DNA of 32,671 nt from Gammaproteobacteria bacterium (GTDB lineage: Bacteria > Pseudomonadota > Gammaproteobacteria > GCA-001735895), in contig JBFGQE010000003.1 in NCBI GenBank assembly GCA_041564355.1, positions 1 to 32,671 on the forward strand, in the 5' to 3' direction. Under the pieces are notes generated by a model. The model worked only from the letters and a program-made list of their open reading frames with translations, made no database searches and was not told the origin of the DNA. Positions 2,106 through 32,518 of the stretch are shown piece by piece. The position numbers were made by a program, and so were the translations under genes. The stretch's first letter is position 1. Each line of letters starts with the position of its first letter.

Positions 2106-3017
2106 TTGAGCAAGGCTGACCCGATACCAAGCGCGGGCGCAATCGATCACTTTATCGATACGCTGTGGGCGCAGAAGGGACTGGCCGAGCTGACCTTGCG
2201 CGCTTACCGCCAGGACCTGACCCAGTTCGACCGCTGGCTTGGGCAACGCGGCCAGCGACTCGACTCGGCCGCTAAGTCCGTGATCCAGCAATTTCTCTCC
2301 GAGCGATTCGATGCCGGGTCATCGGCGCGCTCGAACGCACGCATGCTGTCTTCGCTGAAACAGTATTACCAGCATCTGGTCAAGATCGGCGAACGGCGCG
2401 ACAACCCGACCGCATTGGTGCAGGCGCCGAAAATTCATCGCAGCCTGCCGCAGACCCTGGGCGACCAGGACATGATCGGCCTGCTCGAAGCGCCCGACCT
2501 CGAAAGTCCCTACGGCTTGCGCGATCGTGCGATGCTCGAGCTGATGTATGGCTCCGGCTTGCGCGTCAGCGAACTGGTCGGGCTGGAACTCAACCAGATC
2601 AATACCAACCTCGGCCTGGTTCGCCTGGTCGGCAAGGGCAGCAAGGAGCGGGTGGTTCCGGTGGGAGAAGAGTCCTTGCACTGGCTGACCCGTTACCTGC
2701 GCGACGCACGCCCGTTATTACAACGGCAAAGCCGGCTTGACGGTGCGCTGTTTTTATCCAGTCGCGGCAGCGCGATCACGCGCCAGGCTTTCTGGCAAAA
2801 TATCAAGAAGCATTTACGCAAGGCCGGAATCAAAATGGTGTTTTCGCCGCATTCGCTTCGGCACGCTTTTGCCACCCACCTGCTTAATCATGGCGCGGAT
2901 CTGCGCACGGTGCAAATGCTGCTCGGTCACAGCAGCCTGTCGACAACGCAGATTTATACGCATGTCGCGCAGGCCCGTCTCGCCGCCATTCACGCGAAGC
3001 ACCATCCGCGCGGATAG
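2106..3017 (+). CDS. xerD: Site-specific tyrosine recombinase XerD
   Basis: 'LRDRAMLELMYGSGLRVSEL', 'SPHSLRHAFATHLLNHGADLRTVQMLLGHSSLSTTQIYTHV' and the C-terminal 'HHPRG' typical of XerD. TTG start. Confidence 0.95.
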   Translation: MSKADPIPSAGAIDHFIDTLWAQKGLAELTLRAYRQDLTQFDRWLGQRGQRLDSAAKSVIQQFLSERFDAGSSARSNARMLSSLKQYYQHLVKIGERRDNPTALVQAPKIHRSLPQTLGDQDMIGLLEAPDLESPYGLRDRAMLELMYGSGLRVSELVGLELNQINTNLGLVRLVGKGSKERVVPVGEESLHWLTRYLRDARPLLQRQSRLDGALFLSSRGSAITRQAFWQNIKKHLRKAGIKMVFSPHSLRHAFATHLLNHGADLRTVQMLLGHSSLSTTQIYTHVAQARLAAIHAKHHPRG

Positions 3018-25793: not shown

Positions 25794-28673
25794 TTACGCG
25801 TCGTCCTCCTGGTAGGCGGACAGCGGTGGACAGGAGCAGACCAGATTGATATCGCCGAACTTGTTATCGATGCGACCTACCGGTGACCAGTACTTGTAGG
25901 CGCGCAGCGAAGCCAGCGGATAAGCGGCCTGTTCGCGGCTGTAGGCGTGCTCCCAGTTGTCCGCGCAAACCATGTCGACCGTGTGCGGCGCGTTTTTCAG
26001 CGGGTTGTCCTCGGCGTCCATGCGGCCTTCCTCGATCTCCCTGATCTCGTTGCGAATCGAGATCATCGCGTCACAAAAACGGTCGATCTCTTCCTTCGAT
26101 TCGGATTCGGTGGGCTCGATCATCAGCGTGCCGGCCACCGGGAAGGACATCGTCGGCGCGTGGAAGCCATAGTCGATCAGTCGCTTGGCAATATCGTCGA
26201 CGCTGGCGTAGTCCTTGACCACGCGCGTGTCGATGATGCACTCGTGCGCGACCAGGCCGTTCGGGCCGGTATACAGGATCGGGAAATGATCCTTCAGGCG
26301 GCTCGCGATATAGTTCGCATTGAGGATCGCGGTGGCGGTCGCCTTGGGCAGCCCGTCACGGCCCAGCAGCGAGATATACGCCCAGCTGATCGGCAGCACG
26401 CCGGCACTGCCGAACGGGGCCGCGGCGACCTTGTTGATGCCGCCGTTGGCCGTCTGGCTGGTAGACGGCAGGAACGGTCGCAGGTGCTCCTTGACGCCGA
26501 TCGGGCCGACGCCGGGACCGCCGCCGCCATGCGGTATCGCGAAAGTTTTGTGCAGGTTGAGGTGGGACACGTCGCCGCCGAACTTGCCGGGCGCGCAAAC
26601 GCCGACCATTGCATTCATGTTGGCGCCATCGATGTAGACCTGTCCGCCGTGCTCGTGCACCAGTTCGCAAACCTCGACCACGTTGTCTTCGAACACGCCG
26701 TGCGTCGACGGGTAAGTGATCATGATCGCGGCGAGGTTCTCGCTATGTTTTTCGCACTGCGCCTTCAGGTCGTCGATGTCGATATTGCCGCTTTTCGCGG
26801 TGCCGACGACGACGACTTTCATCCCCGCCATCTGCGCCGAGGCCGGGTTGGTGCCGTGGGCCGAGGCCGGGATGACGCAAATATTGCGATGGCCCTCGCC
26901 GCGGCTCTCGTGGTACGACTTGATCGCGAGCAGGCCCGCGTATTCACCCTGCGCCCCCGAATTGGGTTGCAGCGAGATCGCGTCGTAGCCGGTGCAGGCG
27001 CAAAGCATCTGCTCGAGCTCGATAATCAGCTGCTGGTAACCCTGCGCCTGGTCCAGCGGCACGAACGGGTGAATGCGGCCGAAGCCGGGCCAGGTGACCG
27101 GGATTAGCTCGGTCGCGGAGTTCAGCTTCATCGTGCACGAGCCGAGCGGAATCATCGAGCGGTCCAGTGCGAGATCCTTGTCGGCGAGCTTGCGCATGTA
27201 GCGCATCAGGTCGGTTTCGGAATGATGGCTGTTGAACACCGGGTGGGTCAGAAAATCGCTGGTGCGCACCAGATCCCCGGGCAGGGCGCTGTCGATCTCT
27301 TCGTCCAACCCGTCGATCGAGACCTCGTAGCCGTGATCGTGGGTAAACACGTCGTACAGTGCGGCGACGTCTTCCTTGGTCGTGACCTCGTCGAACGAGA
27401 TACCGATCGTGTTGGCGTCGACCTGGCGCAGATTGATTTGTTTGGCGCGCGCCGCGGCCATGATGAACTCGGTCGCGTTGCCGGTGTTGACCGTGATCGT
27501 GTCGAAGTAATGCTCGGTCTCGACCTCGACGCCGAGCTTGCGCAAGCCCTCGGCCAGCAGCACCGTCAGCCGGTGCACGCGCTGCGCGATGCGGCGAATT
27601 TCGTCGGGGCCGTGGTAGACCGCGTACATGCTGGCCATGATCGCGAGCAGTGCCTGCGCGGTGCAGATGTTGCTGGTCGCCTTTTCGCGACGGATATGCT
27701 GCTCGCGCGTCTGGAGCGCGAGCCGCATCGCGGGTTCGCCGCGGCTGTCGACGGATACGCCGATCAGGCGACCCGGAAGCGAGCGCTTGAAGGCTTCGCG
27801 CGTGGCCATGAATGCCGCATGCGGACCGCCGTAGCCCAGCGGTACGCCGAATCGCTGCGAGCTGCCGACCACGATATCGGCATCGAATTCGCCGGGTGGG
27901 GTCAGCAGGGTCAGGCTCAGCAGGTCCGCGGCCATCGCGACCAGGCCCTTTTTTTCATGTACCTTCTCGACCAGCTCACGATAGTCGTGTATTTCGCCGG
28001 TCGAGCAGGGATATTGCAGCAGCACGCCGCACAGTTCCGGGTTGTCGGCCGCGTCGAACGGGTCGCCGATCACGCACTTGATGCCCATGTGCCCGGCGCG
28101 GTTACAAACGACCTCGATGGTTTGCGGGTGACAGCTATTGGCGATAAAAAACACGTCGCTCTTGCTCTTCGACAGCCGATGACACATCGCCATCGCCTCG
28201 GCCGCGGCGGTGGCTTCATCGAGCACCGATGCGTTTGCCAGTTCCATGCCGGTCAGATCGCTGACCATGGTCTGAAAATTGAGCAGTGCTTCGAGACGTC
28301 CTTGTGAAATCTCCGCCTGGTAGGGCGTATACGCGGTATACCAGGCCGGATTACGCAACAGGTTACGCTCGATCACCGAAGGCGTCTGGGTGTTGTAGTA
28401 ACCCATGCCGATAAAGGACTTGTAAAGCTGGTTGCGAATCGAGATTTCGTAAAGACGGAGCAACACCTGGCGCTCGCTAATGCTGGACTTGACCGCTAGC
28501 GGCTTGCGTCGCCGGATCGCCTCGGGCACGACCTTGTCGAGCAATTCGTCGACGCTGTCCATGCCTAGCGCCTCGAGCATCGCTGCTTCCTCGGCCTGAT
28601 CCGGGCCGATGTGGCGGCGAATGAAGCCGTGAAAAATATCGAGATCCTTTAGCTTGAGATCGAGATTTGCCAT
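25794..28673 (-). CDS. gcvP: Glycine dehydrogenase (glycine cleavage P protein)
   Basis: '[14 protein letters not shown]', '[16 protein letters not shown]', 'PLGSCTMK' and PLP site 'HLNLHKTF'. 959-aa single chain. Confidence 0.97.
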
Positions 28674-28733: not shown

Positions 28734-29525
28734 CTAATCCTTTTGCGGGTCCAGCGAGAGCACTAATTGATCGCTAATCCACTGTTTCAGGAAACCGGCC
28801 GCGGTGAGCGCAACCTGGGACTCGTCGATCCATTCCAGCAGTCCCTCGCAAATCGTGGCGAAGCTCGCCCCGTCATATGCCGCCTCGATTGCCCAGGCTT
28901 CGTGCACCTCGAGCGAGCGCCAGTGAGTTTTGAATTCCCGGCGCCAGAGCAGCCAGCGTTGCGGAACCTCGCCTCGAATCCTGTCGGGTGCATCGCGCGC
29001 CTGGTCGAGCGCGCTCTCAATCGCGGGGACGTTCCAGTAAAGGTCGAGCCAGCGCAGCGCGGGCTTGAATCGGAAGCCCAGACCGGGCCAGTCCCCGGGA
29101 GGAATCTGCGCCATATCGTCCAGCTGCACCAGTTTGTCGCTGTCGGCCGCGTCGAATACCAGCGATTGCGCCCATTCGTAGCTTGCGAGTTCGGCGAGAA
29201 ATTCACGTTGTTCGCCACGATATTCATCTTTCAGGTAAGCCGGCAGGCCGGCACCGAACCAGCGCACCGAGGGATGGGTCGATGGGTGATGTTCGAGGTA
29301 ACCCAGCGCAAGCGCCTCGAAGGCGGGCCGGCCGAGGTATTTCTCCAGCGCCGAGAAATCCACCGCGAGGCAGTCGATCAGGCGAATTCGATAAGCATTG
29401 TAATAGGTGCCGAGACGATGCTCGGCGAGCGCGTTTTCGGTGCTGACGATATCCTGCCGGATATCTTCCGCGCCGCCGACCAGGTAATCCTGGAAGCGCA
29501 GCTGGAGTTGACGTAGCGGGGTCAC
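28734..29525 (-). CDS. bufC: DUF2063-type MNIO partner protein (BufC/HvfC-like)
   Basis: 'LQLRFQDYL...RLGTYYNAY...HPS...FG...ELASYEWA' pattern. GTG start 6 bp after the DUF692 stop. Confidence 0.82.
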   Translation of the reverse strand: MTPLRQLQLRFQDYLVGGAEDIRQDIVSTENALAEHRLGTYYNAYRIRLIDCLAVDFSALEKYLGRPAFEALALGYLEHHPSTHPSVRWFGAGLPAYLKDEYRGEQREFLAELASYEWAQSLVFDAADSDKLVQLDDMAQIPPGDWPGLGFRFKPALRWLDLYWNVPAIESALDQARDAPDRIRGEVPQRWLLWRREFKTHWRSLEVHEAWAIEAAYDGASFATICEGLLEWIDESQVALTAAGFLKQWISDQLVLSLDPQKD

Positions 29526-29531
29526 CTGCGG

Positions 29532-30371
29532 TCAGACCTCGTAGTAGGGTGCGGCGATGCGACGGGCCCGGTCGAGCTCGGCGAGTACCTGGTCGAGCTC
29601 CGGGATGTTGCCGTCGCGTTCGATCATCGTCGATACCGGGCCGAAACGCTTCGCCGTAGCCTCGTAGAGCTGCCAGACCGGGTCGATCACGTCCTGGTCG
29701 TGAGTGTCGATAATCAGGTTGCCTTCATTGGTGTGGCCGGCCAGGTGATGCTGCCAGACGCGCTCGATCGGCACGCCGTCGAGGTAATCCTGTGGATCGT
29801 AGTGATGGTTGTAACTGCTGACGTAGATATTGTTCACGTCGAGCAACAGGAAACAGTCGGCACGCTCGGCAATCGCGCTGAGGAATTCCCATTCCGGCAT
29901 CGCGTCGTCGCAGTAGGTAATGTAACTCGACAAGTTTTCGATCAGCATTTGCCGACCGAGATAATCCTGCACCCGACAAATACGCTCGGCGACGTGCTTG
30001 ATCGCTTCCTCGGTATAAGGCAGCGGCAACAGGTCGTGCATGTTCTTGTGATCGACCCCGGTCCAGCACAGGTGATCGGAAATCCAGCGCGGCTCGACGC
30101 GCTTCATCAGTTGCTTCAGTTGTCGAAGATAGTCGAAATCGAGATCGTCGGTGCTGCCCAGCGATAGCGAAACCCCGTGCATAACCATCGGATAGTCCCG
30201 TCGGATCGCGTCGAGAAAATAGAGCGGTTTACCGCCATCGATCATGTAATTTTCACTGAGGATTTCGAGCCAGTCGATATTTTTCGGCTTGCGCTCGAGA
30301 ATGTCCTGGTAATGTTAGGCGCGCAGCCCGAGGCCGAAGCCAAGAAAGGGTTTTGCGTCGGACTGGATCAT
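29532..30371 (-). pseudogene. bufB: DUF692 multinuclear non-heme iron oxidative enzyme (MNIO, BufB-like) with an in-frame TAA at codon 19 (true nonsense allele or sequencing error)
   Basis: From ATG 30371 it reads [46 protein letters not shown]..., with the stop at 30317-30315. The remainder is intact, with 'HGVSLSLG', 'SDHLCW', 'IENLSSY', 'LLDVNN', 'HLAGH', 'IDTH' and 'IERD'. Full length would be 279 aa. Confidence 0.88.
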
Positions 30372-30416
30372 GAATCGGTTATTGCGTTCGAAGAAATGCG
30401 ATTGTATCGACTGGGC

Positions 30417-30449
30417 AAAAAAAATGCACCGACGATGTCGGTGCATTTT
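30417..30449 (-). terminator. Rho-independent terminator/attenuator between precursor and MNIO gene
   Basis: Perfect 13-bp stem AAAATGCACCGAC (30421-30433), loop GAT, GTCGGTGCATTTT (30437-30449). The 8-A run at 30417-30424 gives a U tail on the minus strand. Confidence 0.85.
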
Positions 30450-30467
30450 ACTGCTGTTGATCCAGGC

Positions 30468-30719
30468 CTAGGCTTCGAATTTGCCACCGGCTTCTTCACA
30501 CTCAGACTTGGTCCGCTTGACCCAACCCTGACCGGCGCAGGAGTTTTGTCCGGCGCAGCTGGTGGTTGCGGTGGCGCAGGCGCTGGTGCCTTTGCAGGAA
30601 TTGATGTTGAAGCATTTACCGGCCTTTTCGGCTGCGGTGGCGCTCATCGGTGCTACCGCGAACATTGCAGCGGCGGCCGCGGCCAGCGCGACTCCTGTGG
30701 TTTTTTTTGCAGTAATCAT
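30468..30719 (-). CDS. bufA2: Secreted six-Cys RiPP precursor (bufferin group 2/BufA2-like metallophore)
   Basis: Ala-rich Sec signal peptide (~aa 1-29), Cys at 36, 42, 48, 55, 61 and 74, duplicated CxxxNSCxG motif, terminal 'C...GGK'. GAGG RBS; lies directly upstream of DUF692-DUF2063. Confidence 0.85.
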   Translation of the reverse strand: MITAKKTTGVALAAAAAAMFAVAPMSATAAEKAGKCFNINSCKGTSACATATTSCAGQNSCAGQGWVKRTKSECEEAGGKFEA

Positions 30720-30777
30720 TTAATTTTCCTCAAGTTTTTTGAACGTCAATGTACTGGTTTACCCCCATTACGCGCAT

Positions 30778-30805
30778 TTAGAGAAGCCGATTTTGCAGAA
30801 AGTTC
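30778..30805 (-). promoter_or_regulatory. Putative sigmaE/AlgU-type ECF promoter of the RiPP operon
   Basis: Minus strand reads GAACTT (30805-30800)-N17-TCTAA (30782-30778), 58 bp upstream of the precursor ATG, preceded by a T-rich tract. Confidence 0.6.
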
Positions 30806-30846: not shown

Positions 30847-31359
30847 TCAACGATACAGGCGGATGATAAGCCGGTCACCGCGTTGTACCAGCTCGAAGTT
30901 TTGTAACACGTTCATGCCAAGCAGGACCTCATCGACGCCCATACCCGGAATAATGCTCGCCCTGACGTCATACAGCTCGATCTCGCCGAGCGCGAGTTGA
31001 TCGAGTCGCGTCAGGTAGGCTCGAGTCTGACCGTTTGCGGTCGAAACCGTCGTCGACGGCCCCGCCACCAGGCCCAGGTATTCCTGCAACTCCCCCGGAA
31101 TCGCGGTCATCGTCGCACCCGTATCGACGAGAAAACTGACGCGTCGTCGATTGACTTCACCGTCGAAAACATAATGTCCCTGGCGGTTCCGCTGCAGCAC
31201 GATTTCGCTATAGTCGCCGGTTTGCAATGTCGAAACAGACCGGTTTGGATTGGCCTGGCGGTCGAGAATCTTCGCGAACACAAGCACCAGCACAAAAAAC
31301 CCCGCAATCCACGCGAGCGTGGTGAACATCATGCCGAGTTTTTTAGTAGAATCAGCCAT
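30847..31359 (-). CDS. Retropepsin-like (clan AA, TIGR02281-type) membrane-anchored aspartic protease
   Basis: N-terminal TM helix, 'GHY...G..N', catalytic 'FLVDTGAT', 'TANG' and 'LLGMN'. Likely start is ATG 31359. Confidence 0.88.
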   Translation of the reverse strand: MADSTKKLGMMFTTLAWIAGFFVLVLVFAKILDRQANPNRSVSTLQTGDYSEIVLQRNRQGHYVFDGEVNRRRVSFLVDTGATMTAIPGELQEYLGLVAGPSTTVSTANGQTRAYLTRLDQLALGEIELYDVRASIIPGMGVDEVLLGMNVLQNFELVQRGDRLIIRLYR

Positions 31360-31411
31360 TACAGCGTAACTTAATGGCGAATCTCCAGAATGCAACGCAA
31401 GGGCAGGCTAG

Positions 31412-32518
31412 ATGTCGGGTAATAGTTTTGGCAAATCGTTCGTCGTCACGTCGTTTGGCGAGAGCCACGGCGGTGCGATCGGATGCGTCGTCGACGGTTG
31501 TCCGCCGGGCCTTGAGCTTTGCGAGGCGGATTTGCAGCACGACCTGGATCGGCGTAAACCGGGTAAATCGAGGCATACGACACAACGCCGCGAAGACGAC
31601 GCGGTGCAAATCCTGTCGGGCACTTTCGAGGGTAAGACCACCGGTACGCCGATCTGTCTGCTGGTACATAACCAGGACCAGCGATCAAAGGATTACAGCG
31701 AGATCAAGAATCTGTTTCGCCCCGGGCACGCCGATTACAGCTACACGCAGAAATACGGCTTTCGCAACTATCGAGGCGGCGGGCGTTCGTCCGCGCGGGA
31801 GACCGCGATGCGCGTCGCCGCCGGCGGTATCGCAAAAAAATACCTGTTCGAGCGATATGGCATCCGGGTGCGCGGTTATCTTGCGCAGCTCGGCCCGCTC
31901 AAGCCGAAAAATTTCGACTGGGATCAGGTCGATCGGAACGACTTTTTTTGTCCCGACGCCGGGCTGGTAGCAGAACTCGAAAGCTACATGGACGCGCTGC
32001 GCAAGGAAGGCGAGTCGATCGGTGCGCGCGTGTCGGTCGTCGCGAGCGGTGTGCCGCCGGGACTGGGTGAGCCGATTTTCGATCGTATCGACGCCGAGAT
32101 CGCGCACGCGATGATGAGTATCAACGCGGTCAAGGGGGTCGAGATTGGTGCCGGTTTCGCTAGCGTCGAGCTCAAGGGTACGCAGAATCGGGACGAAATC
32201 ACGCCGCAAGGCTTTCTCTCGAATCATGCCGGGGGCACGCTGGGCGGAATCACATCGGGACAGGACGTGCTGGTCAGCATCGCGCTCAAGCCGACCTCGA
32301 GTATTCATCTGCCGGGCAGGAGCGTCGATGTCGATGGAAAAGCGGTCGATATTCGCACCAAGGGCCGTCACGATCCCTGCGTGGGCATTCGCGCAACCCC
32401 GATCGCCGAGGCGATGCTGGCGCTCGTGCTGCTGGATCATTATCTGCGCCACCGGGCCCAGAATGGCGATGTGGTCAGTGCCACACCGACGATTCCGGCC
32501 GGTCAAGGCCCGTATTAA
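31412..32518 (+). CDS. aroC: Chorismate synthase
   Basis: 'FGESHG', 'RPGHAD', '[10 protein letters not shown]' and 'GRHDPCV'. Confidence 0.97.

Follow-up and report, generated by a model that had tools for sequence, protein, structure and literature searches.

The closest described relatives of the locus analyzed here are the bufferin (captophorin) clusters of C. vibrioides. For its Buf1 and Buf2 systems the conversion of cysteines to thiooxazoles, copper binding and protection against copper stress are known (PMC11626156), and 5-thiooxazole and copper chemistry has been reported for related captophorins as well (PMC13097082). In Buf2 of C. vibrioides CysI and CysVI stay unmodified and each of the four central cysteines is lighter by 4 Da, with an absorbance maximum near 305 nm. 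The buf2 cluster is induced by copper, protects against it and is under the control of SigF, an extracytoplasmic function (ECF) sigma factor encoded elsewhere (PMC11626156). This founding cluster consists of bufA2-B2-C2 (CCNA_02999-03001) and, in the words of the study, 'lacks a bufD1-like gene' (PMC11626156). The three-gene locus of an uncultured gammaproteobacterium analyzed here lies on contig JBFGQE010000003.1 with a length of 32,671 nt, referred to as the window. The window is the entire contig (C3) of a 2.9-Mb metagenome-assembled genome which comprises 398 contigs and is approximately 75% complete.

The locus is a trio of genes arranged head-to-tail on the minus strand:

30468..30719, minus strand: bufA2, bufferin-2 precursor of 83 aa, from its match to the BufA2 profile
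30633..30719, minus strand: putative Sec signal peptide of bufA2, approximately residues 1-29, read by eye only
29532..30371, minus strand: bufB, MNIO/DUF692 maturase of 279 codons with one nonsense codon in this assembly, from its match to the BufB profile
28734..29525, minus strand: bufC, DUF2063 partner of the PME1 type, 263 aa, from its match to PF09836

Based on our analysis this is very probably a canonical Buf2-type bufferin operon, bufA2-bufB-bufC, of an uncultured marine or sediment gammaproteobacterium, and the stop codon within bufB would be private to this assembly. The original prediction had proposed a group-2 bufferin-like system, made up of a precursor with a signal peptide and a duplicated CxxxNSCxG followed by two maturation genes. 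All these elements were found in place, the signal peptide being read by eye, and the profile searches proposed for DUF692, DUF2063 and BufA2 matched PF05114, PF09836 and NF050166, respectively. The precursor and the MNIO both passed the cut-offs of their equivalog models. Taken together with the DUF2063 match of the partner, the gene order and the invariant cysteines, this establishes membership in the family. Since bufferins were described in 2024, were surveyed in 2025-2026 and have curated NCBIfam models that the locus passes, the assignment as such adds little new for the field.

The precursor BufA2 matched the NCBIfam equivalog NF050166 with 79.5 bits (cut-off 60) over model positions 2-78 of 79, and a six-frame search of the assembly with the BufA2 model gave 78.6 bits. 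Its N-terminus shows a KK n-region and a hydrophobic stretch rich in Ala, with A-T-A before A30, an architecture which recurs across the alignment of relatives (65 distinct rows from 67 sequences, with one row, L098, empty). The core from A30 to A83 contains the six cysteines C36, C42, C48, C55, C61 and C74. The duplicated C-x3-N-S-C-x-G reads CFNINSCKG in the first and CAGQNSCAG in the second copy. At least 95% of the aligned rows kept the six cysteines together with the pattern C-x3-N-x-CKG-x3-C-x-TA-x3-C-x-G-x-N-x-C-x-G-x-G...C-x3-GG. The second repeat differed between the genus of the host (NSCAG) and more distant relatives (N-x-CKG). No Pfam family matched the precursor at E <= 0.01, DUF2282 (PF10048), which is characteristic of Buf1, included. 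A sequence search for relatives with solved structures yielded lactoferrin matches only, which were at chance level.

BufB matched PF05114 with E = 9e-100. Against the equivalog NF050167 (cut-off 310) it scored 338 bits for the open reading frame (ORF) after the stop (residues 43-279) and 385.9 bits when read through. It remained below the cut-offs of the models for HvfB (268 bits, cut-off 360), MbnB (67 bits, cut-off 325), ApyH and ChrH. Apart from the stop, all 86 near-invariant positions, at which no more than one of 79 relatives differs, were kept. The nearest solved chain by sequence was 3bww (E = 7e-46), and the methanobactin MbnBC PDB chains 7dz9 (E = 7e-10) and 7tcr (E = 1e-6) were matched as well. 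BufC scored 67.1 bits against PF09836 (DUF2063, cut-off 27.2) and showed a weak match to the model of the HvfC RRE partner over its full length (44.6 bits), the sole indication of a putative C-terminal RRE-like domain; a sequence search found no relative of it with a solved structure. Pairwise ratios of nonsynonymous to synonymous substitution rates (dN/dS) against eight relatives ranged from 0.02 to 0.07 for bufA2, from 0.06 to 0.13 for bufB and from 0.13 to 0.27 for bufC, with dS near saturation. Being far below 1 for all three genes, they point to purifying selection on the operon.

Comparative analysis included 80 related loci, which were retrieved by similarity to BufB. A bufA was found in 75 of them, and bufC directly followed bufB in 79, so that the order A-B-C is the rule. 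Marine and sediment metagenomes were the source of all nearest loci, which belong to uncultured Gammaproteobacteria and include the Gamma 3 symbiont of Olavius algarvensis. Within a family of such uncultured marine and sediment Gammaproteobacteria the cluster was present in 56 of 79 genomes. The assembly itself contained one MNIO and one BufA2 and, at its 75% completeness, no DUF2282. Two or three tandem bufA2-like frames were located upstream of bufB in the loci L082, L085 and L103; tandem precursor genes have already been described for some bufferin clusters (PMC12452194).

In 72 loci the sequence extended for 700 nt or more beyond bufC, and 71 of these had a usable ORF in this region. In seven of these 71 loci (L060, L064, L065, L068, L070, L073 and L076) a gene for a HupE/UreJ_2-family membrane protein was found on the opposite strand, convergent on bufC. 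The name HupE/UreJ suggests transport of nickel or cobalt, and the gene would then be a second metal-related one beside the bufferin cluster.

The locus had also been regarded as a minimal form, with neither DoxX nor a dedicated sigma/anti-sigma pair nearby, and as a variant that was not known to be characterised. The absence of these genes was borne out. Six-frame searches detected no DoxX and no sigma factor within the window, which also disposes of the idea that either was concealed there. In the remaining assembly DoxX was found on contigs C326 and C101 only, and RpoE-like matches were restricted to C194, C317, C86 and C1. The conclusion of a minimal, uncharacterised variant has to be given up, because the founding Caulobacter cluster has the same layout and none of the 71 downstream ORFs of the related loci matched DoxX. 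Furthermore, sigma and anti-sigma genes are reported for Buf1 but not for Buf2 clusters (PMC12452194), and DoxX is dispensable for maturation and function even of Buf1 (PMC11626156). Judged by its gene content, the three-gene layout is therefore that of a canonical Buf2 cluster.

Three further elements accompany bufA2:

30778..30805, minus strand: putative ECF promoter of the RpoE/AlgU type, GAACTT-N17-TCTAA, 86 nt upstream of the ATG of bufA2
30727..30731, minus strand: Shine-Dalgarno sequence GAGGA of bufA2, read from the sequence
30417..30449, minus strand: intrinsic-terminator-like hairpin between bufA2 and bufB with a 13-bp stem, a 3-nt loop and U8, found by folding

The promoter candidate has a GAACTT -35 element, a spacer of 17 nt and a -10 element of the TC..A type, as expected for RpoE/AlgU; the published consensus is GAACTT-N16/17-TCtgA / TCCAAA (PMC10651043, PMC4336711). 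Of the 65 loci with enough upstream sequence, 43 carried the same motif at a distance of 78-100 nt before bufA, and only two further copies occurred in the 1.2 Mb of these loci when both strands were considered. The whole 2.9-Mb assembly contained two sites, and the longer form with CGTA downstream was unique. The other GAACTT-N15-17-TCTAA site of the assembly (G000:C53:3787-3813, minus strand) could mark a second member of the regulon. A bona fide RpoE was encoded on another contig (316 bits, cut-off 236), and the upstream region of its own gene reads GAACTTT-N15-GTCTTTA. We infer that bufA2 would be transcribed from an ECF promoter of the RpoE/AlgU type with the sigma factor encoded elsewhere in the genome. 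Such control mirrors that of the Caulobacter buf2 cluster by SigF, and links of ECF sigma factors to DUF692 clusters are already present in the literature. The Shine-Dalgarno sequence GAGGA was kept in 15 of the 16 rows of the same genus (among 18 aligned upstream regions).

The hairpin had been missed by a simple terminator scan and was found by folding. The intergenic RNA between bufA2 and bufB folded with -37.1 kcal/mol (z = -5.33), and none of 200 shuffled sequences folded as well. In 54 of 72 loci a hairpin was followed by at least 5 T, including distant loci with unrelated stem sequences. In close loci the stem showed paired changes from GAC/GTC to GGC/GCC. In peptide operons transcription is commonly terminated in part behind the gene of the precursor. 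Here it would let a part of the transcripts reach bufBC and would lead to an excess of precursor over enzyme. Together, the conserved promoter and the terminator within the operon predict envelope-stress control and more precursor than enzyme. When bufferin papers were searched by word, 'terminator', 'stem-loop' and 'RpoE' did not occur in the searched text, and 'hairpin' occurred once, in a cited title.

By analogy with the described systems, BufA2 would be synthesized with a Sec signal peptide, and the cytoplasmic BufB (a multi-iron oxidase) together with BufC, its DUF2063/RRE partner, would oxidise C42, C48, C55 and C61 to 5-thiooxazoles. C36 and C74 would remain thiols and form a disulfide. 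The small folded protein may then be exported by Sec and, after removal of the signal peptide, chelate copper in the periplasm. The system could also be intact and serve mainly another purpose, be it a different metal or envelope and oxidative stress. Several observations point in this direction. The promoter matches the consensus of an envelope-stress sigma factor and not a metal-specific regulator, and the convergent HupE/UreJ-family gene follows bufC in some of the related loci as described above. Furthermore, the survey describes MerC-Buf2 fusions and raises gold and other stresses in its discussion (PMC12452194), and MNIO-PME1 clusters have been linked both with oxidative stress and with the response to metals (PMC13097082). 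On the other hand, both characterised bufferins as well as the related thiooxazole peptides that were tested bind copper (PMC11626156, PMC13097082, PMC12538549), and the precursor matches BufA2 at equivalog level. A main role other than copper buffering is thus quite unlikely.

The reading of a canonical Buf2 operon has to account for the in-frame TAA at 30315..30317 (minus strand), which is codon 19 of bufB and lies within GLGLRA*HY of the translation. In this assembly bufB is consequently not an intact ORF. At the same codon the 44 closest loci carried GAA (21 loci), GAG (18 loci) or GAT (4 loci), and no codon was obtained from one locus; Glu or Asp was hence present in 43 of 44, and TAA represents a single G-to-T difference. 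We compared contigs of four public runs from four studies (X1, X5, X6 and X7) at position 30317. Every covering contig of X1, X5 and X7, i.e. of three studies, had a C on the plus strand, which results in GAA. This was the case in X1 at a depth of 7 of 7 (2 contigs, one of which, with a length of 338 nt, differed from the window at a single letter), in X5 at a depth of 15.7 of 15.7 (3 contigs) and in X7 at a depth of 5.14 of 5.14 (1 contig). No contig of X6 crossed the position. From the GAA in these runs and the Glu or Asp in 43 of 44 relatives it follows that the defect belongs to this assembly and not to the lineage. On this evidence the nonsense codon of bufB is apparently private to this assembly, as a consensus or sequencing error or as a rare allele. 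The original prediction had called for expression of a 'repaired MNIO'. This only hinted at the break, which is the stop at codon 19; the enzyme is intact in other metagenome contigs, and the broken form is not a trait of the lineage. More generally, a gene that looks broken in a metagenome-assembled genome should be compared with other assemblies before it is named a pseudogene.

Several points weigh against the canonical operon with a private stop. Rare variants are lost in assembled contigs, and the source sample is not known to be among the compared runs, so that the population it came from may really carry the stop. From bufB as assembled no complete enzyme can be made. Translation could resume at M43 at the earliest, and a product from there would miss 12 of the 86 near-invariant positions, from G11 to N41 and with H20 among them, for which reason a functional BufB from a downstream start was rejected. 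Nonsense codons that differ from this one, each due to a single base, are also found in bufB of two further assemblies of the genus, with bufA and bufC intact in both. In G010 (L056, contig C15) codon 60 is changed from TAY to TAG and replaces a Tyr, and in G075 (L043, contig C177) codon 154 is changed from TGY to TGA and replaces a non-conserved Cys. BufC lies under the cut-off (142) of HvfC, the sole NCBIfam partner model that it matches. Finally, the -10 element of the promoter candidate is TCTAA and neither of the published forms TCtgA or TCCAAA, so that its assignment is a matter of consensus match only.

The stop may accordingly be real and fixed in the strain. The maturase would then be lost, and BufA2 would be exported unmodified as a Cys-rich periplasmic protein, or the operon would be decaying. 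The assembly does read TAA, and nonsense codons in three bufB genes are more than pure error would predict, which we regard as a lead and not as a finding. In the family of 79 genomes internal stops were present in 3 of 63 bufB matches compared to 0 of 72 for aroC (one-sided Fisher test, p = 0.10). In the set of loci including the window the corresponding numbers were 3 of 81 for bufB and 0 of 188 for bufA, bufC and gcvP (p = 0.027). These statistics are weak, since the numbers are small and the genomes are related and not independent samples. Moreover, bufB of the window shows no second defect, as all 86 near-invariant residues are kept and frameshifts are absent, bufA2 and bufC are intact, GAA is present in the contigs from three further runs, and dN/dS is far below 1. 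We therefore consider a real and fixed stop to be unlikely. In L040 and L051 gcvP was split over two reading frames; housekeeping genes of these assemblies are thus also affected by frame errors or real breaks.

There is likewise a small chance that the loss of bufB is a recurrent real polymorphism in this genus, with three species-level assemblies carrying three different nonsense codons while bufA2 and bufC are intact and under strong purifying selection. If so, cells would keep the precursor and drop the costly modification, which depends on iron and oxygen. An unmodified six-Cys BufA2 might serve a separate function, or cells that do not produce the modified peptide might profit from those that do. 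Such a split would be in keeping with the conserved RpoE-type promoter and with the terminator downstream of bufA2, which would already uncouple the expression of the precursor from that of the enzyme.

Decoding of the TAA at codon 19 by readthrough or recoding, with full-length BufB being made from the sequence as assembled, was considered as well. In its favour, the frame has no other flaw, and conservation of the gene extends to either side of the stop. However, TAA is the ordinary stop of gcvP, aroC and a methyltransferase gene in the window, and on this basis an alternative genetic code or readthrough of TAA was rejected. The relatives carry an ordinary Glu codon at this position, and in both further bufB genes with an interruption the stop codon and its place are different, which indicates that there is no shared recoding site. 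Scans of the window with Rfam models and for tRNA genes gave no matches, so that no tRNA gene is present in it either. Recoding is thus scarcely credible, and a stop private to this assembly within an otherwise canonical Buf2 operon remains the preferred explanation.

The genes adjacent to the cluster are:

31412..32518, plus strand: aroC, flanking the aspartyl protease gene
30847..31395, minus strand: gene of a membrane aspartyl protease of the TIGR02281 family
25794..28673, minus strand: gcvP, downstream of bufC

The chromosomal order aroC - aspartyl protease - bufA2BC - gcvP is conserved. Of the 80 loci, 46 had the protease gene upstream of bufA and 33 had gcvP downstream of bufC according to tblastn; a Pfam scan of the next ORF identified gcvP in 26 of 71. 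The protease was set aside as a component of the system, because the promoter candidate of bufA2 lies between both genes, signal peptidase is enough for processing, and additional conserved genes are reported in bufferin clusters at extremely low proportions only (PMC12452194). A functional link of these three neighbours to bufA2BC is not evident. Parts of the window occurred in 20 public runs, all of DNA, which were labelled as marine, sediment, mangrove and soil metagenomes.

At the other end of the window, the segment 1603..2046 (plus strand) is rich in A (GC 0.51, AT skew 0.32) and encodes a Lys/Ala-rich protein of 147 aa with repeats of the KKAARPAVKK type, which presumably resembles histone H1-like or AlgP-like proteins. 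Its ORF is followed by a T-rich hairpin, and a gene of an XerC/D-type recombinase is located just downstream (2106..3017).

Compared with the known systems, the locus is closest to Buf2 of C. vibrioides. Both share the layout of precursor, MNIO and DUF2063 partner, a six-Cys precursor, with a putative Sec signal peptide in the window, and the lack of DoxX and of an adjacent sigma/anti-sigma pair. In Caulobacter the cluster has been shown to be controlled by an ECF sigma factor whose gene lies elsewhere, and the same is predicted here. They differ in that the host of the window is an uncultured marine gammaproteobacterium whereas Caulobacter is an alphaproteobacterium, in the promoter motif, which is RpoE/AlgU-like in the window and is not known to be SigF-like, and in the stop codon of bufB. 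This comparison is based on the published description and on the NCBIfam models for BufA2 and BufB.

With Buf1 (buf1ABCD) the locus has in common the BufB/BufC-type pair, the Sec signal, the thiooxazoles derived from cysteines and the chelation of copper in the periplasm, the last three being predicted for the window. Buf1 precursors are distinct in having four cysteines and DUF2282, and they are often accompanied by DoxX and SigF/NrsF; the precursor of the window has no Pfam match. That Buf1 clusters commonly hold DoxX and sigma/anti-sigma genes is also reported by the survey (PMC12452194).

The EGKCG or Lys-Cys captophorins (oxazolin HvfABC, fontiphorin, gonophorin and bulbicupramide) follow the same logic of an MNIO with a DUF2063/RRE partner and likewise involve 5-thiooxazoles and copper binding. 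In contrast to their precursors, which consist of 5-mer repeats of the EGKCG type, the precursor of the window would form a folded six-Cys domain and belong to the 'Cys-Lys' group. Methanobactin MbnBC shares the MNIO fold family (PF05114). Its partner MbnC is not a DUF2063 protein, and its product carries oxazolone-thioamide groups, is secreted and serves the acquisition of copper.

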